Shown piece after piece: positions 820 through 56,523 of a DNA stretch of 64,000 nt. The stretch comes from Octopus vulgaris (taxonomy: Eukaryota): the NCBI GenBank assembly GCA_951406725.2, contig OX597833.1:24800001-24864000 (forward strand). The letters run 5' to 3'. Every line of letters begins with the position of its first letter. The stretch's first letter is position 1. A program made the position numbers and the translations under genes. The notes below the pieces were generated by a model. It saw only the letters and a list, made by a program, of their open reading frames with translations. It had not been told where the DNA came from and searched no databases.

Positions 820-1120
820 CCGTCTCTTGTAATTTCAATCAATTGTATATTGTCCTCCCTCTTGTATAGGAGTGTGGCTACAATCCAGCCTACCTCTACT
901 TCTGGAGGTGGGGGGGCATTTAAATTTTTTTCCGGGACGTCCTACGTCCCAAGTATATAGGTAGAAATAAAATATTTCCACTTTGCAAGTTCGAGTCGAG
1001 TACTGCCTTACACGCTCCGTTGACTCGAACCTTGCTTTTATTGGGGCGAATTTACCGCCTCTGATTAGATATCTTTCATAGTCACACCAAGACACTTTTC
1101 GAAGGTGCTTTCCTCCATGT
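820..1120 (-). pseudogene. U0: degenerate, truncated ORF1 relic of the same family
   Basis: Minus-strand translation across frameshifts gives MEESTFEKCLG..., YLIRGGKFAPIKARFESTE, ILFLPIYLGRRTSR and PPEVEVGWIVATLL. These align with IEKCLG, YVSRGKKFGTVEVR, LLPTYLNRR and PPNVEAEWIVAAVI of the intact ORF1s. Confidence 0.75.
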
Positions 1121-1170
1121 TGTTTTATTATTACCCACAAGGGGCGAACACAGATGGGACAATACAATCT
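1121..1170 (-). terminator. Shared 3'-terminal motif (small stem-loop CCC-N-GGG plus AATAAA-like tail); also at about 6376, 8155, 9833, 11583, 13276, 14992, 16655 and in the SINE at 48037
   Basis: Plus-strand TTACCCAC.AGGGGC(G/T)A...GGACA is seen with its core at 1131, 6386, 8165, 9843, 11594, 13286, 15002 and 16663. The minus strand reads GCCCCT(T)NGTGGGTAATAA(TAAAA/AGAAA). Confidence 0.7.
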
Positions 1171-1366
1171 GATGATGGGGTCAGACAAACGAATGGGTTT
1201 TTACAATAAATCGGGTTTAAAAATTTTCATGAATAACAATAAATGGACAGAAATCGAGTGATAGGACAGACCGGAAGACATTACGGGTGGAGTGGGTGCG
1301 GGTTTAGCTCGGACCCCACGAGCCCCGCCTCCCCACTGATACTTTTGGTTGCACTTGGTATTACAT

Positions 1367-4300: not shown

Positions 4301-4761
4301 CCAACATAATCTACATCCGCTTTGCAAATTGTGTTAAAGTCTCCTAGCACCACTAATGAATGCGAAGTACCAAGAAAGTTTTCTAGTTCACGAAAATAAT
4401 CACTTTGCCCTGTATGGTTGGGTGCGTAAATTGCAACCAGTCTGATAACTTTACCATTACTGAACGTCAAATCCATGACGACCAGCCTACCTTCTGGATC
4501 TGCAAAAATTAACTTTTTCTCAGAAACCCGGTTTCTTTTTAATAGGACCAACACCCCACTCCCGCCTGTAGGACTGCCAGGAGAGAAAAAACTCTCGTAG
4601 CCGTCAAACAGCGGGAGTAGACCTCTTGGCCCCTCTAGCCGGGTTTCTGTAGCAACAATAACATCTAAATTACGCGACCTGATATCATGCAGGAAGCGAC
4701 CTTGCTTCCAGCCTGCTCCCAGGCCGCGCACATTTAAACAACCAACATAAATGTAATCCAT
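1367..4761 (-). CDS. ORF2 polyprotein (AP endonuclease + reverse transcriptase + C-terminal CCHC finger), about 1130 aa; interrupted by one in-frame TAG (2083-2085) and one frameshift (about 1933-1936)
   Basis: EN motifs LNVRGL, ETRL, GDFN, LDRIL, SDH; YWKLN; RT motifs PGLDG, FRPITLLN, LDQSKAFDRV, RQGCPLSPLL, AYADD; FLWKG...GGLGMP. Reading continues in frame past the TAG (LNRRSKLGTWYTECRKALL). After a G-run frameshift it gives LAWQCYRGALPV...CPRCGRDRETVPHAIVHC and joins ORF 1367..1708. Confidence 0.93.
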
Positions 4762-6146
4762 TACTTACCTTTATATCAGTGGTTCGGTTTTTTCTTCTAC
4801 TTCCTTCTCTTTTTCTGGGCCTCGTGGGGGAGTCTGACGTAGGCCCTCGAATATATGTGGAGATGTTACATCCAACCTAAGTGGGCCTACGTCATGGAAG
4901 AATTCTGACTTTATCCGCCCGTAATCCTTCCGGTCTATTTTGTAAATTACAAAGTCATTTTTTTTCTCTACTCTCTTCACATTGGCCATGGCTGCCAACA
5001 CGTTTCCGAGTCTGCTATTTGATGCTTTTACGGCCATATATGAGTTCATTGACTCTTTTTTCTTTTTTAAAATTACTCTGGGAGGGGTGGTTTCCGTTTT
5101 TCTTTTTTTTTTTTCCGATAATTTTTGCCCACCCCTCCTCATTTATCTTTTCCTCGCTCTTTTTTTCTCCGCCGCTGGTTCTGCTGTTACCATCACCTCC
5201 ACACCTTCAGTCTTCCCTTCTGGGCCGTCTGACGCTGCTTCTGGTGACACATTGTCTTCTTTTTCTTTTGGCTTAGGTGCTTCCTGCGGTTTGGGTTGGG
5301 GCTGGCATTCCGCCCTTACATGCCCCTTCTTACCGCAGCCGAAGCACCTCGGCTTTCTGCCCTCTACGAAGACTGTGACTCTTTCATCTTCGCTTATCCT
5401 TAGAGTCTCTGGGATCTCTTCCAGAGTTTGTACTTCTGCTTGTATGGCTATTATTATCTTTTGCCCTTTCCAGAATTCTTCTTCTTCTACGGTGGCCTGG
5501 AGGATGTTTATTTTTTCCTCCAGGCCTACCATAACTGCTGCCACTAGGACTTCGGCATCCGCTTCTGGCGGGATGTTGTTCATTGTGATCTTGGAAGTTC
5601 TCTTGCCTTTATACAGGGGTAGGAGAACAATATCCTCCGCTTTTATGGGTTCCATGGATAGCTTCTTCGCTACCTCCTCTGACGTGAATCTCACCTCCAC
5701 TGTGCCGTATTTCTTCCCTCGATTGATATACGTAATTTTATCCATTATTGGCTTTAAGCAGTTTTCAATCTTTTTCTCCTCTATTTTTTGGATTGCTGTT
5801 TGTTATACTGAATGTCTTATAGATTATTCTCCTATTCGAAATATCCTCCTGTATTTGGGCGTTTGAAGCCACGGTTACTTCCGTGCCCTCTTTTGACACA
5901 CAGTCCGCATGTTTTCCCAGGTTGTCCACGTTAATTTTTTTAATTTTCTTCCCAGCCACTTCAGCGAATTTTTTTGCTGGAGTTGATGCTGGTACTGGTT
6001 TTACCATTTTCTTGGGCGACGCCGCCTCTTTTTCTTCGGCGACAGCGCCTCTTTTTTCTTGGCGACAACGCCTCTTTTTTACTTGGCGACAACGCCGGGT
6101 ATTCATCCTCGCTCGTCACGGGCGAATAAGTGATGGGGGACTCCAT
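4761..6146 (-). CDS. ORF1 of U1 (RNA-binding, single CX2CX4HX4C knuckle), split by several frameshifts at homopolymer runs
   Basis: ORF pieces 5961..6155, 5765..6106, 5143..5745 and 4771..5142 form one protein from ATG 6146 (MESPITYSP). Motifs RGKKYGTVEV, LLPLY and VEGRKPRCFGCGKKGHVRAEC. Confidence 0.85.
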
Positions 6147-6618
6147 CTTGAACAAATGGCTTTAACAAGCCTTTGGTAATCTAAATTGATTGTAGTTTTC
6201 CCCCACTGAGGGGGAACACCAACGCGAAGTCTTCGCGCGAAGGTTGACTTCGTCCGTTAGACAACAATGGACAAAAAAAGGTAGACCAACAGTATATAAT
6301 AACAGAGATAAGTAGTATGAGAGCAAAAATATATATCAACTTACTAATAACGCAATAAATTGATTTCCTCCATGTGATTTTATTATTACCCACGAGGGGC
6401 GAACATAGAGGGGACAGTACAATCGGGGAACTTAAAATAAGAAAGCGAAATGACAAGAAAAGGAAAAAATAAAAATAAAAATGACAAATGAAAGAATATT
6501 TACAATGAGATGCAAATGCCCACTCGATCCCCGGAATCGAGAGGTTACATTTTCGTCACATATAGTTCACAATTTTTTTTTTCTTTTTCTCTTCTTTCTT
6601 CTCTCTCCTCTCACAATC

Positions 6619-8018
6619 TCACACGTATTCCATAATACCTTTCAAGTCTCTAAAGTCAATCACTGAGCCCTCAGGCAGCCGCTCTTTCATTCGAACACCC
6701 GTGTAAAAAATTACACTCTCTCCAGCTGCTCTGAGGAACTCAGCGACTCTTTCTTCGGGGATCAGAGCAGTCTCCTGCCACTGATCAGTCATCCTGTTGA
6801 CCCACACATGTCCCTCCGTACTACATGTCAATTCCTTCATTTCGGGGCTGAAATGGAAGGTTATTAACTTGTAGTAATCTTGTTTCCGTCCTACGTTTTC
6901 TCTCGTTTTTCTTTTCGGGCTTACTTCTTCCTTGTTCTCCTCTCTTTGTTTCTCTCTTTCTCTCTTTTTGCCTTCTTTTCTTTCTTCTTCCTTCTCTTGT
7001 CTTTTTGGTTCTTTGTCTGTTCTCTCTTTCTCTCGTGTTTTATGTTCCTTTTCTTTTTCTTTTTGTGTGCCGTCTTTTCTTTTCGTTTGATTCTGATCTC
7101 TCTCTTGTTTTTTTCCTGTTGTTTCTTTTTCCTTTTTCTTTTCCTGACTCTGTTTTGGTTCTATTTCTTTCTTTTCTTTTATTTCTTTTTCCTTCGTTGA
7201 CTTATTATTTCCTTTCTCTTGTTGTTTTGTCTCCTTTTCTATGTTTTCTTTTTCATTTACCGTATTCTTCTTTTCTTCAAGTTCCTTCTCATACTCCGCT
7301 ATGAATTCGTATAACGGGCACTCTTTTTTAATGTGCCCCCTTGTCCCGCACAAGTAGCAGTTTGGCTTTCTTCCCTCTACAATTACACTGAGGGTTTTCT
7401 CGTCTTCGATTTCTATTCTATAGGGGAACCTTTCAATGTCCTCTTTTGTGGCCATCAAACACAGTTCTACCCCATATCCTCTCCAATTTACTGCGTTGGA
7501 CTCCTTAAAGGATTCCACCTCCACTTCCTCTTCTGCTGCTCCTAGAATAGCTGTTGCCAGCCATTCTGTTTTTACTTCTGGGGGTATATTCGGGATTTTA
7601 ACCCGGACCCCTCTTCTTCCCTTGTATGAGGGCCACATTATAAATGTTTCCGCTCTTAGAACAGTGGTAGCCAGTGAGGCTGCAATTTCTTCCGTTGCAC
7701 ATCTCACCTCCACCGTACCAAATTTTTTTCCTCTACTCACGTAGGTCGATTTATCCATTATGTCTCCCAGACATTTTTCGATCTCTGCTATCTCCACTCT
7801 TGCCAGTTTCTTTGTACTTTTGTCCTGGGTTCTATACGTTACAGTTTTGTTTTCTTTGTCCTCTTTTGCTTTCGCGGGGGGATTAGCTTCACGCTATCAC
7901 CCTCCCTTTTGAATAGTTTTTCATATTCTTTGAGTTTACTCTTCTCAAAGAAAACATCCTTCACGATTATTGCCGAATCATTATTATTCTTTCCCGTGAC
8001 CCCCGCGTAAGTCGCCAT
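6619..8018 (-). CDS. U2 ORF1-only cassette protein (type B), one frameshift near 7876-7881
   Basis: ATG 8018 gives MATYAGVTGK (the TYAG motif is shared with the other ORF1s) and joins ORF 6619..7797 with RGKKFGTVEV, VEGRKPNCYLCGTRGHIKKEC, a long K/E-rich linker and a C-terminal domain. The unit spans about 6376-8154. No ORF2 follows. Confidence 0.85.
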
Positions 8019-8279
8019 GACTAGAGGGTCAATTCACCTTCTTCGGAAGGTTTCCAAACGTGGAGGCAAATGCCTCGCGCGATATTAATCACTTTACACA
8101 ACAAAATTTCAACGTCTAATCACAGATAACAACACGTATAGATTTTCTCCATGTTATTTCTTTATTACCCACCAGGGGCTACGAAGAATGGCGGACATAA
8201 CAAAACATGGGGGACATAGAACAATATGATTAAATTTATGAGCAAATGAAAATGAAAAAATGATAATATGAAAGCGATG

Positions 8280-9665
8280 CTAACGGCCCCCTCCGCCAGC
8301 ATCACTTACCTGTCCTTTTGTTTTCACTGTCACCTGAATGTTCTTTCCAATACGAAGACCATCCATATCCATTCTTACTCCGAAACTGTCCTCCATATAT
8401 TCCACGAATTCATCGCTCATTCTTGTATCTTTCACCTCCCAATTCTCCCTTTCACACCTCAACACAAACTCATCTATATTCTTCTTTTCCAGCACTGCAT
8501 ATCTGATCCCATCCATTTCATACCATTCATACTCCTCCATTACCCTTTCAACCTCTTTCTGTTCAGTCACAATATAAATGTTCGGCCTGGGTTCGTTTTC
8601 AAACTCTTGTCTGTCTGTATTATTATTTTTCTTTTGTTTTCTTGTTGGAGGGGAGCGGGTGGGTTCACTGTCTGCAGGGGAAGGGTGGGATTCAGAGGGT
8701 GCGGGTGGTGTTGGGGTGGGTTGGGGCTTCGCACAGTTTTTCTTTTTCTTTCTTTTTCTCTTTTTTCTTCCTTCTTCCCACTCTTGTTGCATCTCCTCTT
8801 CTTCTGTCGTTTCTTTTTCCCTTTGATTCTCTTTGGTTTCTTCCTCTTTTGGGGCTTCCGCGACGATTTCCTTTTCTTTTTCCTTTGGTGGGGGAGGGCA
8901 GTAGGCTCTTATGTGACCCCTCAGGCCACACTTGTAGCACCTGGGCGCCCTACCCTCCACCCACACTCTCATAATAATATTTCCAGTTTTTATACTGTCC
9001 GTAAGCTTTTCTATAACTTCCGCCTCCGTCTGTATGTTCATTACTAGTGTGGCACCTTTCACGCCTTCATATTTCATAATGGCGTGGAGGATGTCCACTT
9101 TATCTTCATTTCCTTTGATAACCGCAGCCGTTATTAATTCGCCCTCTAGGTGTGGAGGTATTCCTTCCACCCTAATTCTGGTGGTCCTTCTATTCAAATA
9201 CGAAGGGAACAAGTAAAACTTTTCTGTACTCACCACCTTGGCTGCTATATTCCTGGCTGCTTTCTCACTTTTAAATTGTACCATTATGGTTCCATATTCT
9301 AATCCTTTTGTCATGTACACAATTTCTTCTCCTGTCTGTTTGAAAGCCTCTTCAATTGCTTCCATGTTAATCACTTCCATTTTTCTACCTCCATTCATAA
9401 ATACTTTATATTTAATGGTTCTACGATGGAACCAGTCTCCGCGCCCTGCTAGAGGCAACAGCTCAACCTCTCCGTTCTCCTCCTCCTTCATGAACTCCTG
9501 GAAGTCCGTCAACTTAGCCAGGTCTATTTCTTTTTCTGTTGACTTCTTCGTTATACCTGCGTATGTGCTTTCCATTTTTTTCACCGCCAACTCCTCCTCA
9601 GATGTCGACGAATTTTCAGAGAAATTTCTCCCTTCCATCTCATCCGTTTGGTAGAGGCGGCTCAT
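8280..9665 (-). CDS. U3 ORF1-only cassette protein (type C), open ORF of about 461 aa
   Basis: First ATG at 9665 (MSRLYQ); motifs TYAGITKK, KGLEYGTIMV and VEGRAPRCYKCGLRGHIRAYC. The unit spans about 8155-9832. Confidence 0.88.
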   Translation of the reverse strand: MSRLYQTDEMEGRNFSENSSTSEEELAVKKMESTYAGITKKSTEKEIDLAKLTDFQEFMKEEENGEVELLPLAGRGDWFHRRTIKYKVFMNGGRKMEVINMEAIEEAFKQTGEEIVYMTKGLEYGTIMVQFKSEKAARNIAAKVVSTEKFYLFPSYLNRRTTRIRVEGIPPHLEGELITAAVIKGNEDKVDILHAIMKYEGVKGATLVMNIQTEAEVIEKLTDSIKTGNIIMRVWVEGRAPRCYKCGLRGHIRAYCPPPPKEKEKEIVAEAPKEEETKENQREKETTEEEEMQQEWEEGRKKRKRKKKKNCAKPQPTPTPPAPSESHPSPADSEPTRSPPTRKQKKNNNTDRQEFENEPRPNIYIVTEQKEVERVMEEYEWYEMDGIRYAVLEKKNIDEFVLRCERENWEVKDTRMSDEFVEYMEDSFGVRMDMDGLRIGKNIQVTVKTKGQVSDAGGGGR

Positions 9666-9986
9666 AGTCGCCTCAGACCGAAAAACGGCCTCCCGAACAG
9701 AAAACGTGCGACGTACAGAACCAGTGTGACGCGAAACCACACCAACTGACGTTCCAATTCTGCAACCACAATTCACTTTTTGTTCTTTTTTCTTTTTTAA
9801 CCGAATTTTACAGAGCCCAAAAAAAAAACGCGTATTTCTTTATTACCCACTAAGGGGCTACGAAGAATGGCGGACATCACAAAACATGGGGACACAGAAC
9901 ATTATAATTAAACTTTATGAACATGAATTGTTAAACGAAAAAAAATGATAAAATGAAAGCGATACCAACGGCCCCGTCCGTCAGCA

Positions 9987-11405
9987 TCACTTACCTGTCC
10001 TTTGTTTTTCATAGTCACTTGAATGTTCTTTGTCAATACGAATAAATTCCATATCCATTCTTACTCCGAAATACTCATCCATATTTTCCACGAATTCATC
10101 GCTCATTCTTATATCTTTCACCTCCCAATTCTCCCTTTCACACCTCCCCATAAACTCACCTATGTTCTTCTTTTCAATCACAGCATACCTAGTCTCTCCA
10201 ACATCATACCATTTATACTCTTCCATTAGACTTTTAACTTCTTTCTGTTCAGTCATAGTACAAATGTACGGCCTGGGTTCGATTTCAATCTCTTGTGTGT
10301 GTGTATTCTTTTTTTTCTTTTGTTTTCTTGTTGGGGGGGAGCGGGTGGGTTCAATGTCTGCATGGATAGGGTGGGACTCAGAGGGTGTGGGAGGTTTTGG
10401 GGTAGATTGGAGTTCCATATTATTTTCTTTTTTTCCACATATTCTTCTCTTCCTCTTACTTCCAGCTTCCTTCCATTTCTGTGTATTCTCTTCCTCTGTT
10501 TCCTTCTCCTCTGGTTTCTGCTTCTCTCTCTCTGGTTCGGAATCCGTTTCTTTCCCTGGGGGAGGGCAGAAGGCTCTTATGTGACCCCTCAGGCCACACT
10601 TGTAACAACGTGGAGCCCTGCCCTCCACCCACACTCTCATGACCACGTCTCCCAGTCTGATGCTTTCCGTCAGGTCCACCAGTACCTCGGTCTCTGCCTG
10701 TACGTTCAGCTCCACTGTTACGCCTCTCCAGCCCTCGGACTTAACCGAGGCATGGAGAATATCCACTTCGTCCTCGTGGCCGCTGATCACAGCCGCCACA
10801 ATCCATTCTGCCTCCACGTTTGGTGGCACTCCCTCCACCCTTATTCGTGTAATCCTCCTGTTTAAATACGTAGGTAACAGTGTTACCTTTTCCGACTTCA
10901 CCGCCTTCGCTGCCATCTTCCTCGCTGCAGATTCACTTTTAAAGTGCACAACTACGGTCCCGTACTTGGATCCTCGAGTCAGAAAATTTATTTCCTCCTC
11001 AGTTCTTCGCAGGGCTTCCTCTATCCATTCCATGGATACAACTTCTACCTTCTTCCTTTCGTTTGCGCACACCCTGTAAACAATGGTCCTCTTATCATAC
11101 CATTCTTTTCTCCTGGGTGTCGGTGATAGTTCCACCTCACCGCTTTCCTTTTTCATGTATTTCTGGTAACTTGGCAACTTGGCCATGTCGACCCCTTTCT
11201 CTTCCGCCTTCTTGGTTACACCGGCATAGGTATAACTCAGCTTGTCTTCCAATTTCCTTGCTGCCATTTCTAGCTCCTTCTCAGACGTAGGCAAGTCTGA
11301 TAAAGACTCGAAAACTCCAGCCTTTTCCTCCATCAGCTTCACTGCAATTGCCTGTTCCAGTTCCTCATCCGTCGTGGACAAGTCTGTCAGAGACTCATAG
11401 TCCAT
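9987..11405 (-). CDS. U4 ORF1-only cassette protein (type D, long N-terminus), intact, 472 aa
   Basis: ATG 11405 (MDYESL); motifs RGSKYGTVVV and VEGRAPRCYKCGLRGHIRAFC; ends RTGK*. Unit about 9833-11582. Confidence 0.9.
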   Translation of the reverse strand: MDYESLTDLSTTDEELEQAIAVKLMEEKAGVFESLSDLPTSEKELEMAARKLEDKLSYTYAGVTKKAEEKGVDMAKLPSYQKYMKKESGEVELSPTPRRKEWYDKRTIVYRVCANERKKVEVVSMEWIEEALRRTEEEINFLTRGSKYGTVVVHFKSESAARKMAAKAVKSEKVTLLPTYLNRRITRIRVEGVPPNVEAEWIVAAVISGHEDEVDILHASVKSEGWRGVTVELNVQAETEVLVDLTESIRLGDVVMRVWVEGRAPRCYKCGLRGHIRAFCPPPGKETDSEPEREKQKPEEKETEEENTQKWKEAGSKRKRRICGKKENNMELQSTPKPPTPSESHPIHADIEPTRSPPTRKQKKKKNTHTQEIEIEPRPYICTMTEQKEVKSLMEEYKWYDVGETRYAVIEKKNIGEFMGRCERENWEVKDIRMSDEFVENMDEYFGVRMDMEFIRIDKEHSSDYEKQRTGK

Positions 11406-11738
11406 TTCCTTCTGTCTGACAGACCGAAAACGGCCGCCAACAGAAAAAGTGTAACGCGCTGAACGAGCGAAACGCGAAACCGCGTCAACGCCGTTCAGAA
11501 TTTCCACAACAACAACAACGCTTTTTGTTCTTTTTTACCGAATTTTCAGGAGCCGAAAAAAACACGGAGCCGAAAAAAACGCTTATTTCTTTATTACCCA
11601 CTAAGGGGCTACGAAGAATGGCGGACATAACAAAACATGGGGACATAGAACATTATAATTAAACTATATGAACATGAATTGTTAAACGAAAAAAAAATGA
11701 TAAAATGAAAGCGATACCAACGGCCCCGTCCGTCAGCA

Positions 11739-13104
11739 TCACTTACCTGTCCTTTGTTTTTCATAGTCACTTGAATGTTCTTTGTCAATACGAATAAATT
11801 CCATATCCATTCTTACTCCGAAATACTCATCCATATTTTCCACGAATTCATCGCTCATTCTTATATCTTTCACCTCCCAATTCTCCCTTTCACACCTCCC
11901 CATAAACTCACCTATGTTCTTCTTTTCAATCACAGCATACCTAGTCTCTCCAACATCATACCATTTATACTCTTCCATTAGACTTTTAACTTCTTTCTGT
12001 TCAGTCATAGTACAAATGTACGGCCTGGGTTCGATTTCAATCTCTTGTGTGTATGTATTCTTTTTTTTCTTTTGTTTTCTTGTTGGGGGGGAGCGGGTGG
12101 GTTCAATGTCTGCATGGATAGGGTGGGACTCAGAGGGTGTGGGAGGTTTTGGGGTAGATTGGAGTTCCATATTATTTTCTTTTTTTCCACATATTCTTCT
12201 CTTCCTCTTACTTCCAGCTTCCTTCCATTTCTGTGTATTCTCTTCCTCTGTTTCCTTCTCCTCTGGTTTCTGCTTCTCTCTCTCTGGTTCGGAATCCATT
12301 TCTTTCCCTGGGGGAGGGCAGAAGGCTCTTATGTGACCCCTCAGGCCACACTTGTAACAACGTGGAGCCCTGCCCTCCACCCACACTCTCATGACCACGT
12401 TCTCCCAGTCTGATGCTTTCCGTCAGGTCCACCAGTACCTCGGTCTCTGCCTGTACGTTCAGCTCCACTGTTACGCCTCTCCAGCCCTCGGACTTAACCG
12501 AGGCATGGAGAATATCCACTTCGTCCTCGTGGCCGCTGATCACAGCCGCCACAATCCATTCTGCCTCCACGTTTGGTGGCACTCCCTCCACCCTTATTCG
12601 TGTAATCCTCCTGTTTAAATACGTAGGTAACAGTGTTACCTTTTCCGACTTCACCGCCTTCGCTGCCATCTTCCTCGCTGCAGATTCACTTTTAAAGTGC
12701 ACAACTACGGTCCCGTACTTGGATCCTCGAGTCAGAAAATTTATTTCCTCCTCAGTTCTTCGCAGGGCTTCCTCTATCCATTCCATGGATACAACTTCTA
12801 CCCTCTTCCTTTCGTTTGCGCACACCCTGTAAACAATGGTCCTCTTGTCATACCATTCTTTTCTCCTGGGTGTCGGTGATAGTTCCACCTCACCGCTTTC
12901 CTTTTTCATGTATTTCTGGTAACTTGGCAACTTGGCCATGTCGACCCCTTTCTCTTCCGCCTTCTTGGTTACACCGGCATAGGTATAACCCAGCTTCTGA
13001 TCCATTTTCCTCACTGCTATTTCTAGCTCCTCCTCAGACGTAGACAAGTCTGTTAAAGACTCAAAAACTGCAGCCGTATCTCCCATCAGGTAGGGGTTGT
13101 CCAT
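11739..13104 (-). CDS. U5 ORF1-only cassette protein (type D, short N-terminus), 1-nt frameshift near 12400
   Basis: ORFs 12208..13104 and 11739..12398 join. ATGACCACGTTCTCCC has one extra base relative to the sister copies. Unit about 11583-13275. Confidence 0.85.
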
Positions 13105-13424
13105 TTCCTTCTGTCTGACAGACCGAAAACGGCCGCCAAAACAGAAAAAGTGTAACGCGCTGAACGAGCGAAACGCGAAACCGCGTCAACGCCGTTCAGA
13201 ATTTCCACAACAACAACAACGCTTTTTGTTCTTTTTTACCGAATTTTCAGGAGCCGAAAACAAAAAACACGGAGCTTTTTCTTTATTACCCACTAGGGGC
13301 GACACAGAGGGGGACACCACGAAACATGGGGACATATAACATTATAATTAAACTTTATGAAGATGAATTGTTAAACGAAAAAATGATTAAATGAAAGCGA
13401 TACCAACGGCCCCGTCCGTCAGCA

Positions 13425-14840
13425 TCACTTACCTGTCCTTTGTTTTTCATAGTCACTTGAATGTTCTTTGCCAATACGAATAAATTCCATATCCATTCTT
13501 ACTCCGAAATACTCATCCATATTTTCCACGAATTCATCGCTCATTCTTATATCTTTCACCTCCCAATTCTCGCATTCACACATCACCATAAAGTCACCTA
13601 TGTTCTTCTTTTCAATCACAGCATACCTAGTCTCACCAACATCATACCATTTATACTCTTCCATTAGACTTTTAACTTCTTTCTGTTCAGTCATAGTACA
13701 AATGTACGGCCTGATATCGATTTCAATCTCTTGTGTGTGTGTATTCTTTTTTTTCTTTTGTTTTCTTGTTGGGGGGGAGCGGGTGGGTTCAATGTCTGCA
13801 TGGATAGGGTGGGACTCAGAGGGCGTGGGTGGTTTTGGGGTGGATTGGAGTTCCATATTATTTTCTTTTCCACGTATTCTTCTCTTCCTCTTACTTCCAG
13901 CTTCCTTCCATTTCTGTGTATTCTCTTCCTCTGTTTCCTTCTCCTCTGGTTTCTGCTTCTCTTTCTCTGGTTCGGGATCCATTTCTTTCCCTGGGGGAGG
14001 GCAGAAGGCTCTTATGTGACCCCTCAGGCCACACTTGTAACAACGTGGAGCCCTGCCCTCCACCCACACTCTCATGATCACTTCTCCCAGTCTGATGCTT
14101 TCCGTCAGGTCCACCAGTACCTCGGTCTCTGCCTGTACGTTCAGCTCCACTGTTATGCCTCTCCAGCCCTCGGACTTAACCGAGGCATGGAGAATATCCA
14201 CTTCGTCCTCGTGGCCGCTGATCACAGCCGCCACAATCCATTCTGCCTCCACGTTTGGTGGCACTCCCTCCACCCTTATTCGTGTAATCCTCCTGTTTAA
14301 ATACGTAGGTAACAGTGTTACCTTTTCCGACTTCACCGCCTTCGCTGCCATCTTCCTCGCTGCAGATTCACTTTTAAAGTGCACAACTACGGTCCCGTAC
14401 TTGGATCCTCGAGTCAGAAAGTTTATTTCCTCCTCAGTTCTTCGCAGGGCTTCCTCTATCCATTCCATGGATACAACTTCTACCCTCTTCCTTTCGTTTG
14501 CGCACACCCTGTAAACAATGGTCCTCTTATCATACCATTCTTTTCTCCTGGGTGTCGGTGATAGTTCCACCTCACCGCTTTCCTTTTCCATGTATTTCTG
14601 GTAACTTGGCAACTTGGCCATGTCGACCCCTTTCTCTTCCGCCTTCTTGGTTACACCGGCATAGGTATAACTCAGCTTGTCTTCCAATTTCCTTGCTGCC
14701 ATTTCTAGCCCCTTCTCAGACGTAGGCAAGTCTGATAAAGACTCGAAAACTCCAGCCTTTTCCTCCATCAGCTTCACTGCAATTGCCTGTTCCAGTTCCT
14801 CATCCGTCGTGGACAAGTCTGTTAGAGACTCATAGTCCAT
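13425..14840 (-). CDS. U6 ORF1-only cassette protein (type D, long N-terminus), intact, 471 aa
   Basis: Open ORF nearly identical to U4. Unit about 13276-14991. Confidence 0.9.
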   Translation of the reverse strand: MDYESLTDLSTTDEELEQAIAVKLMEEKAGVFESLSDLPTSEKGLEMAARKLEDKLSYTYAGVTKKAEEKGVDMAKLPSYQKYMEKESGEVELSPTPRRKEWYDKRTIVYRVCANERKRVEVVSMEWIEEALRRTEEEINFLTRGSKYGTVVVHFKSESAARKMAAKAVKSEKVTLLPTYLNRRITRIRVEGVPPNVEAEWIVAAVISGHEDEVDILHASVKSEGWRGITVELNVQAETEVLVDLTESIRLGEVIMRVWVEGRAPRCYKCGLRGHIRAFCPPPGKEMDPEPEKEKQKPEEKETEEENTQKWKEAGSKRKRRIRGKENNMELQSTPKPPTPSESHPIHADIEPTRSPPTRKQKKKKNTHTQEIEIDIRPYICTMTEQKEVKSLMEEYKWYDVGETRYAVIEKKNIGDFMVMCECENWEVKDIRMSDEFVENMDEYFGVRMDMEFIRIGKEHSSDYEKQRTGK

Positions 14841-15140
14841 TTCCTTCTGTCTGACAGACCGAAAACGGCCGCCAAAACAGAAAAAGTGTAACGCGCTGAA
14901 CGAGCGAAACGCGAAACCGCGTCAACGCCGTTCAGAATTTCCACAACAACAACAACGCTTTTTGTTCTTTTTTACCGAATTTTCAGGAGCCTTTTTCTTT
15001 ATTACCCACTAGGGGCGACACAGAGGGGGACACCAAGAGACATGGGGACATATAACATTATAATTAAACTTTATGAACATGAGTTGTTAAACGAAAAAAT
15101 GATTAAATGAAAGCGATACCAACGGCCCCATCCGTCAGCA

Positions 15141-16503
15141 TCACTTACCTGTCCTTTGTTTTTCATAGTCACTTGAATGTTCTTTGCCAATACGAATAAA
15201 TTCCATATCCATTCTTACTCCGAAATACTCATCCATATTTTCCACGAATTCATCGCTCATTCTTATATCTTTTACCTCCCAATTCTCGCATTCACACATC
15301 ACCATAAAGTCACCTATGTTCTTCTTTTCAATCACAGCATACCTAGTCTCACCAACATCATACCATTTATACTCTTCCATTAGACTTTTAACTTCTTTCT
15401 GTTCAGTCATAGTACAAATGTACGGCCTGATATCGATTTCAATCTCTTGTGTGTGTGTATTCTTTTTTTTCTTTTGTTTTCTTGTTGGGGGGGGAGCGGG
15501 TGGGTTCAATGTCTGCATGGATAGGGTGGGACTCAGAGGGCGTGGGTGGTTTTGGGGTGGATTGGAATTCCATATTATTTTCTTTTCCACGTATTCTTCT
15601 CTTCCTCTTACTTCCAGCTTCCTTCCATTTCTGTGTATTCTCTTCCTCTGTTTCCTTCTCCTCTGGTTTCTGCTTCTCTCTCTCTGGTTCGGGATCCATT
15701 TCTTTCCCTGGGGGAGGGCAGAAGGCTCTTATGTGACCCCTCAGGCCACACTTGTAACAACGTGGAGCCCTGCCCTCCACCCACACTCTCATGATCACTT
15801 CTCCCAGTCTGATGCTTTCCGTCAGGTCCACCAGTACCTCGGTCTCTGCCTGTACGTTCAGCTCCACTGTTACGCCTCTCCAGCCCTCGGACTTAACCGA
15901 GGCATGGAGAATATCCACTTCGTCCTCGTGGCCGCTGATCACAGCCGCCACAATCCATTCTGCCTCCACGTTTGGTGGCACTCCCTCCACCCTTATTCGT
16001 GTAATCCTCCTGTTTAAATACGTAGGTAACAGTGTTACCTTTTCCGACTTCACCGCCTTCGCTGCCATCTTCCTCGCTGCCGATTCACTTTTAAAGTGCA
16101 CAACTACGGTCCCGTACTTGGATCCTCGAGTCAGAAAATTTATTTCCTCCTCAGTTCTTCGCAGGGCTTCCTCTATCCATTCCATGGATACAACTTCTAC
16201 CCTCTTCCTTTCGTTTGCGCACACCCTGTAAACAATGGTCCTCTTATCATACCATTCTTTTCTCCTGGGTGTCGGTGATAGTTCCACCTCACCGCTTTCC
16301 TTTTTCATGTATTTCTGGTAACTTGGCAACTTGACCATGTCGACCCCTTTCTCTTCCGCCTTCTTGGTTACACCGGCATAGGTATAACCCAGCTTCTGAT
16401 CCATTTTCCTCACTGCTATTTCTAGCTCCTCCTCAGACGTAGACAAGTCTGTTAAAGACTCAAAAACTGCAGCCGTATCTCCCATCAGGTAGGTGCTGTC
16501 CAT
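15141..16503 (-). CDS. U7 ORF1-only cassette protein (type D, short N-terminus), frameshift in G run
   Basis: G8 at 15487-15494 versus G7 in the intact copies; ORFs 15439..16503 and 15141..15590 join. Unit about 14992-16652. Confidence 0.85.
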
Positions 16504-16804
16504 CTCCTTCTGTCTGACAGACCGAAAACGGCCGCCAAAACAGAAAAAGTGTAACGCGCTGAACGAGCGAAACGCGAAACCGCGTCAACGCCGTTCAGAA
16601 TTTCCACAACAACAACAACGCTTTTTGTTCTTTTTTACCGAATTTCAGGAGCTGATTTTTTATTACCCACTAAGGGGCGACACAGAGGGGGACAACAAAA
16701 GACATGGGGACATAGAACATTATAATTAAACTTTATGAACATGTATTGTTAAACGAAAAAAAATGATAAAATGAAAGCGATACCAACGGCCCCGTCCGTC
16801 AGCA

Positions 16805-18219
16805 TCACTTACCTGTCCTTTGTTTTTCATAGTCACTTGAATGTTCTTTGCCAATACGAATAAATTCCATATCCATTCTTACTCCGAAATACTCATTCAT
16901 ATTTTCCACGAATTCATCGCTCATTCTTATATCTTTCACCTCCCAATTCTCCCTTTCACACCTCCCCATAAACTCACCTATGTTCTTCTTTTCAATCACA
17001 GCATACCTAGTCTCTCCAACATCATACCATTTATACCCTTCCATTAGACTTTTAACTTCCCTCTGTTCAGTCATAGTACAAATGTACGGCCTGGGTTCGA
17101 TTTCAATCTCTTGTGTGTGTGTATTCTTTTTTTTCTTTTGTTTTCTTGTTGGGGGGAGCGGGTGGGTTCAATGTCTGCATGGATAGGGTGGGACTCAGAG
17201 GGTGTGGGTGGTTTTGGGGTAGATTGGAGTTCCATATTATTTTCTTTTCCACGAATTCTTCTCTTCCTCTTACTTCCAGCTTCCTTCCATTTCTGTGTAT
17301 TCTCTTCCTCTGTTTCCTTCTCCTCTGGTTTCTGCTTCTCTCTCTCTGGTTCGGAATCCGTTTCTTTCCCTGGGGGAGGGCAGAAGGCTCTTATGTGACC
17401 CCTCAGGCCACACTTGTAACAACGTGGAGCCCTGCCCTCCACCCACACTCTCATGATCACTTCTCCCAGTCTGATGCTTTCCGTCAGGTCCACCAGTACC
17501 TCGGTCTCTGCCTGTACGTTCAGCTCCACTGTTACGCCTCTCCAGCCCTCGGACTTAACCGAGGCATGGAGAATATCCACTTCGTCCTCGTGGCCGCTGA
17601 TCACAGCCGCCACAATCCATTCTGCCTCCACGTTTGGTGGCACTCCCTCCACCCTCATTCGTGCAATCCTCCTGTTCAAATACGTAGGCAACAGTGTTAC
17701 CCTTTCCGACCTCACCGCCCTCGCTGCCACCTTCCCCGCTGCAGATTCACTTTTAAAGTGCACAACTACGGTCCCGTACTTGGATCCTCGAGTCAGAAAA
17801 TTTATTTCCTCCTCAGTTCTTCGCAGGGCTTCCTCTATCCATTCCATGGATACAACTTCTACCCTCTTCCTTTCGTTTGCGCACACCCTGTAAACAATGG
17901 TCCTCTTATCATACCATTCTTTTCTCCTGGGTGTCGGTGATAGTTCCACCTCACCGCTTTCCTTTTCCATGTATTTCTGGTAACTTGGCAACTTGGCCAT
18001 GTCGACCCCTTTCTCTTCCGCCTTCTTGGTTACACCGGCATAGGTATAACTCAGCTTGTCTTCCAATTTCCTTGCTGCCATTTCTAGCCCCTTCTCAGAC
18101 GTAGGCAAGTCTGATAAAGACTCGAAAACTCCAGCCTTTTCCTCCATCAGCTTCACTGCAATTGCCTGTTCCAGTTCCTCATCCGTCGTGGACAAGTCTG
18201 TTAGAGACTCATAGTCCAT
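16805..18219 (-). CDS. U8 ORF1-only cassette protein (type D, long N-terminus), frameshift in G run, with A-to-G cluster
   Basis: G6 at 17151-17156 versus G7; ORFs 17071..18219 and 16805..17074 join. Unit about 16653-18383. Confidence 0.85.
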
Positions 18220-18239
18220 TTCCTTCTGTCTGACAGACC

Positions 18240-18383
18240 GAAAACGGCCGCCAAAACAGAAAAAGTGTAACGCGCTGAACGAGCGAAACGCGAAACCGCG
18301 TCAACGCCGTTCAGAATTTCCACAACAACAACAACGCTTTTTGTTCTTTTTTACCGAATTTCAGGAGCCGAAAAAAACGCGAC
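18240..18383 (-). promoter_or_regulatory. Candidate internal promoter / 5' UTR of cassette (CpG-rich TTTCGCG motifs); equivalents at the 5' end of each unit
   Basis: A CpG-dense patch lies upstream of every ORF1 ATG: 6221-6243 (includes the palindrome CTTCGCGCGAAG), 8072-8085, 9680-9740, 11425-11495 and so on. Promoter function is inferred from L1-clade biology. Confidence 0.4.
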
Positions 18384-18574
18384 CTTTCTCTACATTGTAT
18401 ACTTTATAGACAATAGTCTTTTCTTTATTTTAATTTTTTATTATCCATCTGGACTATTCCATTTCTGCACGCTAAATTTTATTTTATTCCCATTCACGTG
18501 AAACCACTTATTCAAGATCAAGTCATTCATGCAATTTTATACCAATTGCTATTTTTACTTTTTTTATGTTACGA

Positions 18575-19023
18575 TTATATTATACTTTAGTTTGATTTTA
18601 ATAATTACTTACTACGTATAATTCAATTGTTATTATTATTTTATTGTTAAAGTAAAAGTATCTGACATAAAATAGAGAAATGTGTTTGTTTCACTTTTAA
18701 CACGTAATACTGAAATAGTGGGGAAGATATGATATTGCTATGGGCTCGCTCTAGGCAAGAAGTTGAACATTTTTTTTGCCCATGAACCTACAAGGACCCA
18801 AAGTATTATATTATACTTTAGTTTGATTTTAATTATTATTTACTACGTATAATTCAATTGTTATTATTATTTCTATTGTTAAAGTGAAAGCATCTGACAT
18901 AAAATAGAGAAATATTTTTGTTTCACTTTTAAATAGTGGAGAAAATATGATATTGCTATGGGCTCGCTCTAGGCAAGAAATTGAACATTTTTTTGCCCAT
19001 AAAACTACATGGACCCTAAGTAA
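18575..19023. repeat. Two-copy tandem repeat (about 225 bp) inside the Helitron 5' arm
   Basis: ATTATATTATACTTTAGTTTGATTTTAAT...GCTATGGGCTCGCTCTAGGCAAGAA occurs twice (about 18575-18803 and 18805-19023). Confidence 0.9.
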
Positions 19024-19077
19024 GGCATGTGTAAAATTTGAATGAAATTGGTTGTGTAGTTCTCAAGTTTTAGGGAA

Positions 19078-19108
<31 letters not shown>

Positions 19109-19386
19109 CACATTCTCAGTTTTATATATATAAAGATGACAGACATAAGGAGACACCTCGGTGGACAGCTTAGATATGAGTAGAAGTCACCTCATTTTCT
19201 CATGACTGGAAGAATTTAAAATTACACTCGTTTAAGAATAGATGCTGAACAGAGGCGGGATGAGTTATGGGGTTTTCAGAAACAAATTCTTGTGTGTTTA
19301 TGAGGCATATTTGTACTTATATATATGTATACATATTTATGTTTGTGTAAATTTACATCTATATACATTTAGGAATATATATATAT

Positions 19387-26397: not shown

Positions 26398-26564
26398 AAT
26401 TAAGGGTAGAAATTGATATTTATCAATTAAGACCAGTGGTCTAGCATATTAAAAAGAATCCGAAGATTAAAATATTTATATATAAATATTTTAATCTTCG
26501 GATTCTTTTTTAATATGCTAGACCACTGGTCTTAATTGATAAATATCAATTTCTACCCTTAATT
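26398..26564. repeat. Near-perfect palindrome (about 83-bp arms) with a third copy of the arm at about 26987-27070
   Basis: AATTAAGGGTAGAAATTGATATTTATCAATTAAGACCAGTGGTCTAGC... is followed immediately by its reverse complement. The direct plus inverted arrangement resembles Penelope pLTR ends. Confidence 0.9.
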
Positions 26565-27087
26565 AATTTTATATAAATAAATATGTTCTCTAACCGATAA
26601 ATTGACTGCTGCTAATTATTAGCTGCAGGCTAGTTTTCTCGGGTTTCAACGCGCCAAAGTAAAGGCATTTGAAAGATATATTCAAATGTAATAGGCTGAA
26701 CTCCATGCACGCGATATTTCGGTATCGTGTTTGCATCTAGTCCAGCAAATTGCATTTATAACGGACCATGCTGATGATGGCTGCAGTTTTCCTTGCGGAA
26801 AATAACAGCTGAAACTAATTAGTACATGGGTAATTATTTTATTTCGTATATTTTTCACTTGTTTATTGCTATGGTTTTGTGTTGAGTTTGATCTGAGAAC
26901 ATAATCTTTTGTGGTGAATGGCGATTTGACGTCTATATCTAGCATGTTGACTGTCCACTTTTCGTGTTCAGTCCTTAATTGGTATATATAAATATTTTAA
27001 TCTTCGGATTCTTTTTTAATATGCTAGACCACTGGTCTTAATTGATAAATATCAATTTCTACCCTTAATTAATTTTATATATACATA

Positions 27088-27174
<87 letters not shown>

Positions 27175-27180
<6 letters not shown>

Positions 27181-28089
27181 GTTGTATACTGTCAATCTAA
27201 CAAGAACGTGACAGTAGGGGGTACACCACCGCTGTATAGCCCTAGGAAGCATCGAACGCCTCCTGATAGCTTTGACACATTTTTTCCCTGTGTCCTTATA
27301 TACATATACGAAGGGGAGACAAACACCTCCGGCTGCCGGAACTGCATCTAGGGACACCGTGTTTCAGGATCGTTGTCCTTCATCGGCCTAGAGTAGCAGA
27401 CACCGGTACACTTTAAAAATGAAAATGAAGCAAGAAAGAATGCGACAAAAATTCTGAAATCTGAAAGTTGGACTTTATTACCTAGTTACTGCGGAAAGAG
27501 GGCAGAATAAGAATTAGTAGGATTTCGCCCGAACTTAACATGGAGAGGATATTAGCGGCAGTAGTTTTCAACTGCAAGGAAAGTGTGGAGGTGGTGAAGG
27601 TGGAAAAGTCAACAGAACGTCCAATATAAAAGAACTGGAATATATGTAATATTAATATGTAAAATTGTAAATTGTAAAATTGTATTTTAAACGAAACTGC
27701 GAGTTTTGGGGGCTCGTAAGCCGTTCCATCTAACTCATTACACATAATTCATCTTTATTTCATATTTTATTTTTTACTTTATGTACCCCACGTCCCGTCT
27801 TGTAATGTCCTCTCTGCATTCGGGCCATCGTGCCCATAATAAAGATATAATATCACCAGCTGACCGGTGTCTGCTACTCTAGGCCGATGAAGGACAACGA
27901 TCCTGAAACACGGTGTCCCTAGATGCAGTTCCGCCAGCCGGAGGTGTTTGTCTCCCCTTCGTATATGTATATAAGGACACAGGGAAAAAATGTGTCAAAG
28001 CTATCAGGAGGCGTTCGATGCTTCCTAGGGCTATACAGCGATGGTGTACCCCCTACTGTCACGTTCTTGTTAGACTGACAGTATACAAC

Positions 28090-28095
<6 letters not shown>
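27175..28095. repeat. 233-bp inverted repeat pair (27175-27407 / 27863-28095) flanked by (TA)n; Penelope-like or retrozyme-like
   Basis: Mirror ORFs 27052..27357(-) and 27913..28233(+) are nearly identical, and each arm contains a hammerhead motif. Confidence 0.9.
27879..27922 (+). ncRNA. Type I hammerhead ribozyme candidate (mirror copy 27348-27391, minus)
   Basis: CTAGG-CCGATGA-AGGA(caacga)TCCT-GAA-ACAC(g)GTGT-C-CCTAG. All three stems pair, the cleavage triplet is GUC, and the core has CCGA instead of CUGA. Confidence 0.65.
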
Positions 28096-30741: not shown

Positions 30742-30952
30742 TATTGTTTTCATATTTTGGCACAAGGCCAGCAAGTTCGAGGAGAGGATAAATCGATTAC
30801 ATCGACCTCAGTGTTCAACTACTACTTATTTAACCGGCCATGAAAGGATGAAAGGCAAAATCAACCTCGGCGAAATTTGAACTCAGAACGCAAAGACAAA
30901 ATGCCGCCAAACATTTTGCTTGGCGTGCTAACGACATTGGCAGCTCGCAGCC
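30742..30952 (-). mobile_element. tRNA-derived SINE family B, degenerate
   Basis: Shares GAAAGGATGAAAGGCAAA..CCTCGGCG.AATTTGAACTCAGAAC and GCGTGCTAACG with the 48037-48267 copy. Confidence 0.75.
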
Positions 30953-45134: not shown

Positions 45135-45257
45135 TAAATTCCTGGGTAGCAAAAAAATTAAGAAAATTTCTTTGCTACCAATGGTATAGCGAGAAGAAAA
45201 ACTAGTCAATAGACTATATATTATTCATATAAAAATTCAGTGTACATTTAAACACAT

Positions 45258-45550
45258 AAGAGATGGCCATAACAGGACATCTGACTCGCTAGAAGGAGTA
45301 GTTAAACTCCAAAACCACTATTAGGGGTAATTTCGAAAGGGAATGAAAAATAAAGCATTTACCCTCTATTTCCTATACCATGGTTTCAAGCTATCTTCAG
45401 TAAATAAAATAATTTACCTTGGCAAAGGTCTCGTCAGTAGGGAAGCCAAGTTTAACATTTATTTTTCATTCCCTTTAGAAATTACACCTAATAGTGGTTT
45501 GGAGTTTAAATACTCCTTCTAGCGGGTCAGATGTCCTGTTATGGCTATCT

Positions 45551-45554
<4 letters not shown>
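45258..45554. repeat. Inverted repeat (about 97-bp arms, about 100-bp spacer) ending at (TA)n
   Basis: TAAGAGATGGCCATAACAGGACATCTGAC... is mirrored by ...GTCAGATGTCCTGTTATGGCTATCTCTTA. Confidence 0.85.
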
Positions 45555-45597
<43 letters not shown>

Positions 45598-47755: not shown

Positions 47756-48036
47756 ATGTGTGTGTATGTATGTATGTATGTATGTATGTATGTATGTATG
47801 TATTTGATGAACTTACATTGGAGTTTTTAACACCTCTCTCCTAAAGCGAGAATATTTCTTCATGGCAGTCTCTTTTAATTTAACATTTTGAATAAATTGG
47901 TGAGCTCCCTTTTAACATTCTGTAACTATCAGAACTAGGACGCAACTAGTACTTAATTTATCGATCTCGAAAGGATGAAAGGCAAAGTCGACCTCGGCGG
48001 AATTTGAACTCAGAACATAATGACAGACGAAATACC

Positions 48037-48267
48037 TATTTCTTTACTACCCACAAGGGGCTAAACACAGAGAGGACAAACAAGGACAGACAGACGGATT
48101 AAGCCGATTATATCGATTCCAATGCGTAACTGGTACTTATTTAATCGACCCCGAAAGGATGAAAGGCAAAGTTCACCTCGGCGGAATTTGAACTCAGAAC
48201 GTAGCGGCAACAAAATGCCGCTAAGCATTTCGCCCGGCGTGCTAACGATTCTGCCAGCTCGCCGCCT
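48037..48267 (-). mobile_element. tRNA-derived SINE family B with Tx1-like 3' tail, joined head-to-tail to a 5'-clipped family B copy (47944-48036)
   Basis: Head GGCGGCGAGCTGGCAGAATCGTTAGC...GAGTTCAAATTCC (A and B boxes), core GCCTTTCATCCTTTCGGGGTCGAT, tail TGTGTTTAGCCCCTTGTGGGTAGTAAAGAAATA. Confidence 0.85.
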
Positions 48268-48453
48268 TACAACTATTAGATATTAAAAAGAAGAATCGTG
48301 CATCATAATTGCAGATTATGATCTCTGCAAAGTGTAATCACGTTCCAAGTATACCAAAGATTCATAATTCTATGACTTTATAATCCTGAACTTCATCGTA
48401 TTTTCCTATGGCTACTGCAAAGTCAGCTTAATAATTCATTATACAAATGCAAC

Positions 48454-48656
48454 AAGGTGGCAGAATCGCTAGCACGCCGGACAAAATGCTTAGTGGCATT
48501 TCGTCCGTCTTTACGGACTGAGTTCAAATTCCATCGAGGTCGACTATTCCTTTTATCCTTTCCGGGTCCATGAAATAAGTACCAGTTGAATACTGTAATC
48601 GATTTACCTACTCTCCTGGAATTGCTGGACTTGTATGAAAATTGGAAACCAATATT
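48454..48656 (+). mobile_element. tRNA-derived SINE family B with a different tail
   Basis: TGGCAGAATCGCTAGCACGCCGG...GAGTTCAAATTCC...AAATAAGTACCAG, ending CTTGTATGAAAATTGGAAACCAATATT like the 30742 copy. Confidence 0.75.
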
Positions 48657-51007: not shown

Positions 51008-51364
51008 CTTATTAATATTTAGCAGAAGTAACAGAGTAACTCAAGGGCCAAGAATTGCGTTGGACATTGAATCACACTGTTGCTTCTGCTAAATATTAAT
51101 AAAAGCCTTGTGTATGAGTGCGGTAGATGGAAACTGAAAGAAGCTCATCGTATATGTGTGTGTTTATACGCACACATATATGTATACATTTACATACATC
51201 TATACATACACACGCATCCCCCCAGACACACATATATCGATGTCTTCCGGGGATCTACAGCTTCTGTTCGCCACGTCACCACATAGTAACATCTACTTTT
51301 ACCACCCACCACCTTCTTCTCCACACAACACCCACTGTTCGTGACCAGGTCAAATTTCATAAGT

Positions 51365-51486
51365 ATGAGAACAACAGGTACAGGATATACAAATCAAAAA
51401 TCATTAATGTGAAATGAAAGCGATAGATATTATTGCTTATTACAGCCGTCACACGACGTTTTGTCACAGTTGACTATAACTATACG

Positions 51487-51567
<81 letters not shown>

Positions 51568-51608
51568 CCTCCATCCATCCGTCCATCCATCCATCCATCC
51601 ATCCATAC

Positions 51609-51666
<58 letters not shown>

Positions 51667-52258
51667 ATATCTATCTATCTATCTATCTATATATCTATCT
51701 ATCTATCTATTTGTCTGAATGCCTGTCTATGTATGTATGTATGTATGTATGTATGTATGTGTATGTATGTATGTATGTATGTATGTATGTATGTATGTAT
51801 GTATGTATGTATGTATGTGTGTATGTATGAATTTATGCATGTATGTATGTATGCTTGTATGTATGTATGAATCTATCTATTTATCTATTCTTGGAAATGA
51901 AGTCTTACGGCAGAGATACAAAACTATCACAAACACAGGGAATTCTTCCCTGTGTTTGTGAAAGCTCCGTATCTCTGCCGTAAGGCTTCATTTCAACACA
52001 CACCAGCTGAATTCAATTCGTCCCCAGTCGAAAGACATCTGTTGTTATGTCCTGTTATTAATATCATTTTTATTGTATTTTGTATTTATATTTGTGTAAC
52101 ATCGTCTGTTTTTCCGTCCTTGTTTTTGTATACATTTGATGCTTTCTTCGAAGGAATCTAATGGTCCTAGCGTCGTGTGACGGCTGTAATAAGCAATAAT
52201 ATCTATCGCTTTCATTTCACATTAATGATTTTTGATTTGTATATCCTGTACCTGTTGT

Positions 52259-52264
<6 letters not shown>
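51365..52264. repeat. Nested fold-back: perfect 94-bp outer arms (51365-51458 / 52171-52264) and an inner hairpin at about 51896-51993
   Basis: ATGAGAACAACAGGTACAGG...GTCACACGACG is mirrored exactly. The inner pair is CTTACGGCAGAGATAC...CACAAACACAGGGAA / TTCCCTGTGTTTGTG...GTATCTCTGCCGTAAG. Confidence 0.9.
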
Positions 52265-52299
<35 letters not shown>

Positions 52300-54871: not shown

Positions 54872-56460
<1,589 letters not shown>

Positions 56461-56523
56461 AGAAGCTTATTTCTATCAAGAATGCTTATTTCTATCAAAG
56501 ATAGAAATAAGCATTCTTGACTT

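Follow-up and report, generated by a model that had tools for sequence, protein, structure and literature searches.

Organization of the Locus

The window analysed here is a 64,000-nt stretch of the Octopus vulgaris genome (contig OX597833.1, positions 24,800,001–24,864,000); the element names used below (U1, fam2–fam10, N6, cas2–4, A1/A2/B) are labels coined in this analysis. A SINE of the tRNA type, the 230-bp tail-A1 unit, occupies positions 48037–48266 on the minus strand and consists of a head, a body, and a 3′ tail at 48037–48110 (minus strand), in which the stretch 48037–48101 was recognized as Tx1-derived by alignment. The tail contains a 4-bp stem, GCCC/GGGT, around the loop CTTGT (48049–48061, minus strand), with the insertion junction 12 nt downstream. 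The head carries an A-box-like motif at 48256–48246 and a B-box-like motif at 48195–48186, both detected by regular expression; Rfam and ARAGORN gave no tRNA match for it, and no family name was obtained from Rfam, ARAGORN, or ESM Atlas searches. The element is flanked by target-site duplications (TSDs) and abundant, with 40 tail-A copies per 500 kb. Four consecutive T residues are absent from the majority sequence of the SINE, and Pol III transcription would therefore continue into the following unit. Directly after the tail-A unit lies a second, partial SINE unit starting with GGTATTTCGTC (47935–48036, minus strand), which we read as a host SINE, the older of the two, that received the tail-A unit as an insertion, on the strength of the age test of other dimers described below.

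Two further SINE copies in the window belong to family B, which combines the same head with another tail. One lies at 48448–48650 on the plus strand and has a degenerate hairpin, and the other lies at 30742–30952 on the minus strand. The head and body of family B are 79–80% identical to those of the tail-A SINE over positions 1–155 and diverge at the tail, as the initial annotation had described for the copies near 30742 and 48454. A 4-bp stem around CTTGT is present in the family B tail as well (TGGC/GCCA at 30770–30758, minus strand), and random loci yielded similar stems; in this copy and at L084, L092, L102, and L105 they are TGGC/GCCA, AGGC/GCCT, or GGGC/GCCT. Several family B tails are followed by ATT repeats. 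The octopus SINEs OR1, OR2, and OK (Ohshima and Okada 1994, as cited in PMC4824008 and PMC4758252) are tRNA-derived, and the SINE in the window may belong among these. The window also contains inverted and direct repeats, with no relation to the SINE, at 26398–28094, 45243–45568, 51364–52265, and 55027–56500.

The LINE of the window, U1, is full length (1121–6363, minus strand) with both ORFs broken: ORF1 contains frameshifts, and ORF2 is interrupted near 2083 by a stop and near 1950 by a frameshift. Intact ORF2 frames of 1132 amino acids were found in many U1 copies elsewhere, among the 150 matches listed. According to Pfam, the U1 ORF2 comprises an APE endonuclease, a reverse transcriptase (RT), and a zf-RVT domain, and its best PDB match was human L1 ORF2p (E = 5e-65, vs 5e-26 for R2). 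U1 thus has the features of the L1 group, namely ORF1 together with an ORF2 that carries an APE endonuclease, an RT, and a C-terminal zinc motif and is nearest to L1 ORF2p. Close ORF2 relatives occur in Argonauta hians and Octopus sinensis. We provisionally call the clade Tx1 on the basis of architecture and site specificity; sequence-specific insertion into repeats or microsatellites, characteristic of Tx1, was found for U1, fam2, and fam5.

U1 is bounded by the 12-bp TSD ACATGGAGGAAA at 1109–1120 (minus strand), and other copies of it lie at 6364–6375 and, with one base different, at 8143–8154. Among the best 30 copies of U1, 27 have their 3′ end joined to ACATGGAGGAAA. The target is carried by a host repeat, whose 5′ part lies at 18382–19137 (minus strand) and whose 3′ part, with a short hairpin and CTAG at its end, lies at 630–1108 (minus strand). 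This repeat, presumably Helitron-like to judge from its end motifs, is abundant, with matches in 4 of 50 random loci. Also at the locus are cassettes that contain only ORF1: cas2 with a zinc knuckle and the tail GCCCCTCGTGGGT (6376–8142, minus strand), cas3 (8155–9832, minus strand), and five head-to-tail units of the cas4 type, each with a hairpin tail (9833–18381, minus strand).

Within the U1 group, the ORF2s of subfamilies with different targets are 87–97% identical in the endonuclease, compared with 94–99% in the RT. The difference among the 30 best U1 copies was 0.19%, a value biased low by the sampling of best matches, and older subfamilies of the group exist. At two loci (L026 and L027), U1 ends are joined off target to ACATGGCCCC, the start of what appears to be another tRNA-type SINE, with ACATGG in common. 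Locus L077 (G000:C58) has an ORF2 identical to that of U1 with the 3′ UTR and junction of another subfamily, and is possibly a recombinant or an assembly chimera. A U1-group ORF2 lies inside a 2499-aa open frame, a possible fusion, at L255 (G000:C9:119208838).

A Hairpin Tail Shared across the Tx1-Like Clade

The proposal that the SINE, the LINE, and the cassettes share a 3′ tail was borne out by alignment. Locally aligned, the SINE and U1 tails were identical at 35 of 40 positions with a score of 48, against a mean of 14.4 and a maximum of 24 in 300 shuffles. The pattern GCCCCTTGTGGGTA, with up to two mismatches, matched the window six times, compared with 0.19 expected, and none of 100 shuffles yielded as many; when 1-nt indels were allowed, nine tails were recovered, comprising the U1 end (1122–1145), seven cassette ends, and the SINE. 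The SINE 3′ end is therefore homologous to a LINE 3′ end, as in a stringent SINE–LINE pair, and these alignments support a Tx1 derivation of the SINE tail. However, the tails of N6 (score 75, 49/55) and fam9 (55) scored higher against the SINE than that of U1 (48), with fam10 scoring 37. Because the tail is clade-wide, its identity alone cannot name the partner. The common tail is real but not specific to U1, since many Tx1-like families carry variants of it.

Each of the other Tx1-like families combines its tail variant with its own insertion site. The site of fam2 is (ATT)n, that of fam5 is mostly (CT)n, and of the two fam3 copies one lies at (ATCT)n; fam6 is mostly found at GGAT, and N6, a dispersed ORF1-only family, mostly at CGAG or CGAA. 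Variants of the tail also occur in fam7 and fam8, and several U1-group subfamilies carry the hairpin tail at unrelated sites. A tree of 14 rows resolved the families, with their branching order left unresolved. Tandem organization was also seen: fam2 forms arrays of 5.87-kb units with short (ATT)n runs between them, with up to 10 units on contig C50 (L128–L150), and a 144-bp tandem array is made of the N6 tail (L331–L358; G000:C21:42753776-42757475).

When 21 tails were aligned with plain MAFFT, the 4-bp stem was 92.9% paired and none of 500 shuffles reached its score, although the rows are related sequences chosen partly by hairpin-like patterns, which may beat a shuffle control even without structure. 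In three of the four pairs both bases vary; pair 2, for example, is CG in 11 tails, GC in four, UA in two, AU in one, and GU in one. Stems slid along the same alignment as controls were 15–46% paired, and the stem was 90.8% paired in an earlier set of 19 tails. Conservation of the stem across copies, on which the initial annotation had staked its proposal, was therefore observed, with the compensatory changes of a stringent SINE–LINE pair. The energy is weak: the hairpin was not supported when sequences were folded singly, with the SINE tail folding no better than shuffles (z = 0.94) and the U1 tail adopting a different fold at minimum energy. In most families, in the SINE and the LINEs alike, the stem is located about 12 nt from the junction, the junctions are exact, with no poly(A), and in most LINEs AATAAA occurs 3′ of the stem.

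Target Sites and Ages of the SINE

The insertion sites of the SINE were determined in unselected DNA, namely 500 kb at round coordinates plus two neighbours of the window, in which 43 tail matches gave 41 usable rows, one of them a LINE tail. GGTA directly follows 24 of the 40 SINE tails and AGAA follows five, against a background of 0.27% for GGTA, and the site classes are GGTA, AGAA, and TATA/ATAT. TSDs, with a median length of 16 bp, were identified in 26 of 48 non-nested full-length copies (3/300 in the control); these 48, out of 117, are the full-length copies without SINE sequence following them, in a set that includes pattern-selected loci. In 14 of the 26, the duplication begins with GGT on both sides and so in the 5′ copy too, indicating that GGTA is target sequence. 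The TSD lengths resemble those of the Tx1 families. The tail variant also tracks the site, with GGTA following 23 of 36 tails with GGGT and 3 of 22 with GGGC (p = 3e-4).

The SINE copies differ from their majority sequence by a median of 5.8% (range 2.7–13.2%, n = 66). In 14 SINE dimers, the head had diverged by 6.1%, the first body by 3.5%, and the second body by 6.9% (p = 0.024 and 7e-4 for the contrasts), whereas 24 monomers were even, at 4.6% and 4.7%. We infer that dimers arose when younger copies landed in the heads of older SINEs. A single composite source gene for the dimers was disfavoured, the second units being variable and older.

The comparison of ages and target sites that the initial annotation called for separated the SINE from U1. 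None of the 100 junctions listed, of 103 at the U1 target, had a SINE tail, and pattern searches for U1-type ends at the SINE sites yielded 0 and 0 matches. The SINE is also far older, with a median divergence of 5.8% against 0.19% among the best U1 copies. U1 was consequently rejected as the driver of the SINE on both site and age.

ORF1-Only Cassettes at the U1 Target

A genome-wide pattern search for hairpin tails joined to the 3′ side of the U1 target gave 103 matches. Counted by eye, the 100 listed comprised 63 tails of the LINE type and 37 of cassettes (21 cas3, 11 cas4, and 5 cas2), which indicates that each cassette reached the U1 site by copying that began at its own 3′ end. The possibility that cassettes simply ride along as 5′ read-through on the LINE RNA was rejected on the same count. 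In having ORF1 alone, a LINE 3′ end, and independent insertion, the cassettes are HAL1-like, and arrays of cassettes with the LINE were present in 8 of the 19 U1-group regions examined. U1, through its ORF2, is thus likely to copy the cassettes. The suggestion that the ORF2 of U1 drives the LINE, the cassettes, and the SINE is therefore supported for the cassettes but not for the SINE.

Two fam9 elements, L435 (about 620–890, minus strand) and L436 (4185–4424), have ORF2 residues 4–30 fused to residues about 1066–1131 and are ORF1-only elements caught in the making. The cas3 and cas4 tails (window positions 8155–11581) are nearer to the fam9-group LINE tail, with its ATTCTTCGT block (L447–L456), than to that of U1, yet they are at the U1 target, which suggests cross-family riding. 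At L448, a fam9-group LINE is followed by a cas4-like start.

Candidate Partner LINEs

With a search pattern from which the stem of the SINE itself was excluded, 33 matches were obtained, most of them SINE-like by their matched letters, and eight were examined. Three of these (L457–L459) are copies of a LINE family, fam10, and all three lie within a SINE, where they abut GGTATTTCG or GGTATCTCG. A cas2-like element (L462) is found at a GGTAT site, and the other four are damaged SINEs. L457 and L458 were assigned to fam10 by ORF2 matches and L459 by DNA similarity. Compared with U1, fam10 is 74% identical in the RT and 56–58% identical at the C-terminus, and its LINE parts are 83–88% alike, an age comparable to that of the SINE. 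As GGTAT was required by the search pattern, the finding of all three copies at this site is no measure of fam10 specificity. These three copies are all broken or truncated, and neither an intact ORF2 nor an endonuclease was seen among them.

A second site of the SINE is shared with fam9. L435 and L436, which contain ORF1 and the internally deleted ORF2, are inserted at the SINE A-box site AGAAACGTTAGC, and two of five further fam9-type tails are at AGAAAC. The autonomous copies of the fam9 group had mixed flanks, with none of 20 LINE ends at AGAAAC or GGTA. No LINE was matched to the TATA/ATAT class, and four pattern searches for LINE tails of the U1, fam8, and fam9 types at the GGTA site found none. 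Further pattern searches for a partner LINE recovered SINEs alone (8/8; 30/30 of those examined out of 74; 32 of SINE type by matched letters) or had no matches. When outside queries were used, protein searches led to fam2, fam5, or the U1 group.

Mechanism and Alternative Explanations

The SINE lands at the sites of sister families rather than at that of U1, and the sister enzymes therefore likely copy it. We consider it probable that sister families such as fam10 and fam9 have copied the SINE and that U1 copies only itself and the cassettes; the verdict is that the partner of the SINE is the clade, not the ORF2 in the window. We infer that the SINE is transcribed by Pol III, and its RNA would display the clade hairpin, to which the ORF2 proteins of the sister families are predicted to bind. 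Reverse transcription would begin about 12 nt downstream of the 4-bp hairpin, and the SINE would be inserted by target-primed reverse transcription at a site set by the endonuclease of that family.

A different division of labour, in which an ORF2 of the U1 type, or of any member of the clade, copies the SINE and the read-through bases of the RNA (GGTA…, AGAA…, or ACATGG…) choose the site by annealing to nicked DNA, would make the SINE's different site uninformative about the enzyme. The missing four-T run in the SINE majority sequence fits such steering, as does the fact that a source copy lying within a SINE head would bring GGTATTTCG or AGAAACG with it. It also draws on the U1-group subfamilies whose ORF2 domains are 87–99% identical with unrelated targets, on L077, where a U1-like ORF2 lies in an array with the tail and junction of another subfamily, and on the tail variant of the SINE tracking the site. 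Nevertheless, changes in the endonuclease go along with changes in the target, endonuclease swaps are reported to switch targets in SART1/TRAS1 (PMC7265360), most SINE copies are older than U1, and non-nested copies match just four to five target bases; we regard this explanation as unlikely. The same small chance is accorded to its general form, in which the 4-bp hairpin is a clade-wide docking signal by which any passenger RNA can use any Tx1 ORF2, with the read-through bases steering the site.

One extinct or unfound partner with a relaxed endonuclease, such as the autonomous parent of N6, might instead have driven all tail-A SINEs, with fam10 and fam9 merely sharing sites. The N6 tail is indeed the closest to that of the SINE (49/55, score 75), the preferences of N6 and fam6 are for short, SINE-like sites (CGAG and GGAT), and tails of the U1, fam8, and fam9 types were absent from the GGTA site in the four pattern searches. 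However, the difference in site among the SINE subfamilies (p = 3e-4) is poorly explained by one enzyme, and N6 differs from the SINE by a pair swap in the stem and in its site, which makes a single partner quite improbable. It is more improbable still that the tail is common by descent only, for example through a single capture of an AATAAA signal, with the hairpin unread and the SINE driven by a non-Tx1 LINE such as RTE, CR1, or Dong-R4. PMC13282606 lists these three as recently active in Octopus vulgaris, the weak fold does not surpass shuffles, and AATAAA follows the stem in most LINEs; but such descent is at odds with the compensatory changes in the stem, the equal 12-nt distance from stem to junction in the SINE and the LINEs, the similarity in TSD length to Tx1 families, and the presence of a Tx1 family at the exact SINE site. 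Copying by the sister families thus remains our preferred reading.

Comparison with Known SINE–LINE Pairs

UnaSINE and UnaL2 reportedly form a pair of the L2 clade in which recruitment in trans was demonstrated by assay, whereas the octopus case is argued from sequence. In UnaSINE/UnaL2 and the other stringent pairs listed in PMC3747384, recruitment of the LINE RT in trans is attributed to the 3′ stem-loop, as proposed here. Stringent pairs within the L1 clade are represented by ZmSINE2/3 and LINE1-1_ZM in maize and SINEX-3_CR and L1-1_CR in Chlamydomonas (PMC3747384, PMC3472496), in which an L1-group LINE has a tail of about 50 nt in common with a tRNA SINE and a compensatory hairpin, as here. 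The octopus case differs from these plant and algal pairs in belonging to an animal, Tx1-type branch that is site-selective and has many families on one hairpin; Table 1 of PMC3747384 includes neither a Tx1 pair nor an octopus pair.

The nearest parallel is provided by SINEU and Tx1-Mar of crocodilians (Kojima 2015, PMC4494074), where a SINE is likewise tied to Tx1 families by a common target. The SINE families there differ in the Tx1 family that they follow, insertions are in tandem, and targets lie inside another transposon, features that have counterparts here (PMC4494074). SINEU, however, has U1 or U2 snRNA heads and poly(A), in contrast to the tRNA-type head and poly(A)-free end of the octopus SINE, and PMC4494074 reports that no LINE was found with the 3′ terminus of SINEU-1. 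A homologous hairpin tail and the SINE itself as a target further set the octopus system apart. The cassettes resemble HAL1, HeT-A, and Ag-Sponge, which have kept ORF1 and the LINE 3′ end and lost ORF2 (PMC5786205, PMC5753468), and differ in their Tx1-like origin and in being stacked at one site with an autonomous LINE.

The literature covered, in part as excerpts, holds Tx1-driven SINEs without a common tail (SINEU) and L1-clade pairs in plants and an alga, with no tRNA SINE bearing a Tx1 tail, which Repbase, Dfam, or SINEBase may record. The same excerpts contain no octopus SINE–LINE pair, and one may be held in those databases or in Ohshima and Okada 1994. Whether the ancestry of the L1 group was stringent (3′ structure) or relaxed (poly(A)) is treated as an open question in the part of PMC3747384 covered, where the L1-clade pairs are plant and algal only. 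An animal clade of the L1/Tx1 type with a covarying hairpin, no poly(A), and intact young ORF2 copies makes this question testable, and it offers three passenger classes, different targets, and proteins about 90% identical between which domains could be exchanged. If the hairpin were a docking signal for any Tx1 ORF2 and the read-through bases steered the site, the SINE would specify where it lands through copies nested in SINE heads, and an L1 relative would have given rise to a natural integrase that is steered by RNA and open to reprogramming. The copy number of the SINE, extrapolated from 40 per 500 kb, is about 2e5, and riding on the clade hairpin would explain both its spread and its pile-up into dimers.
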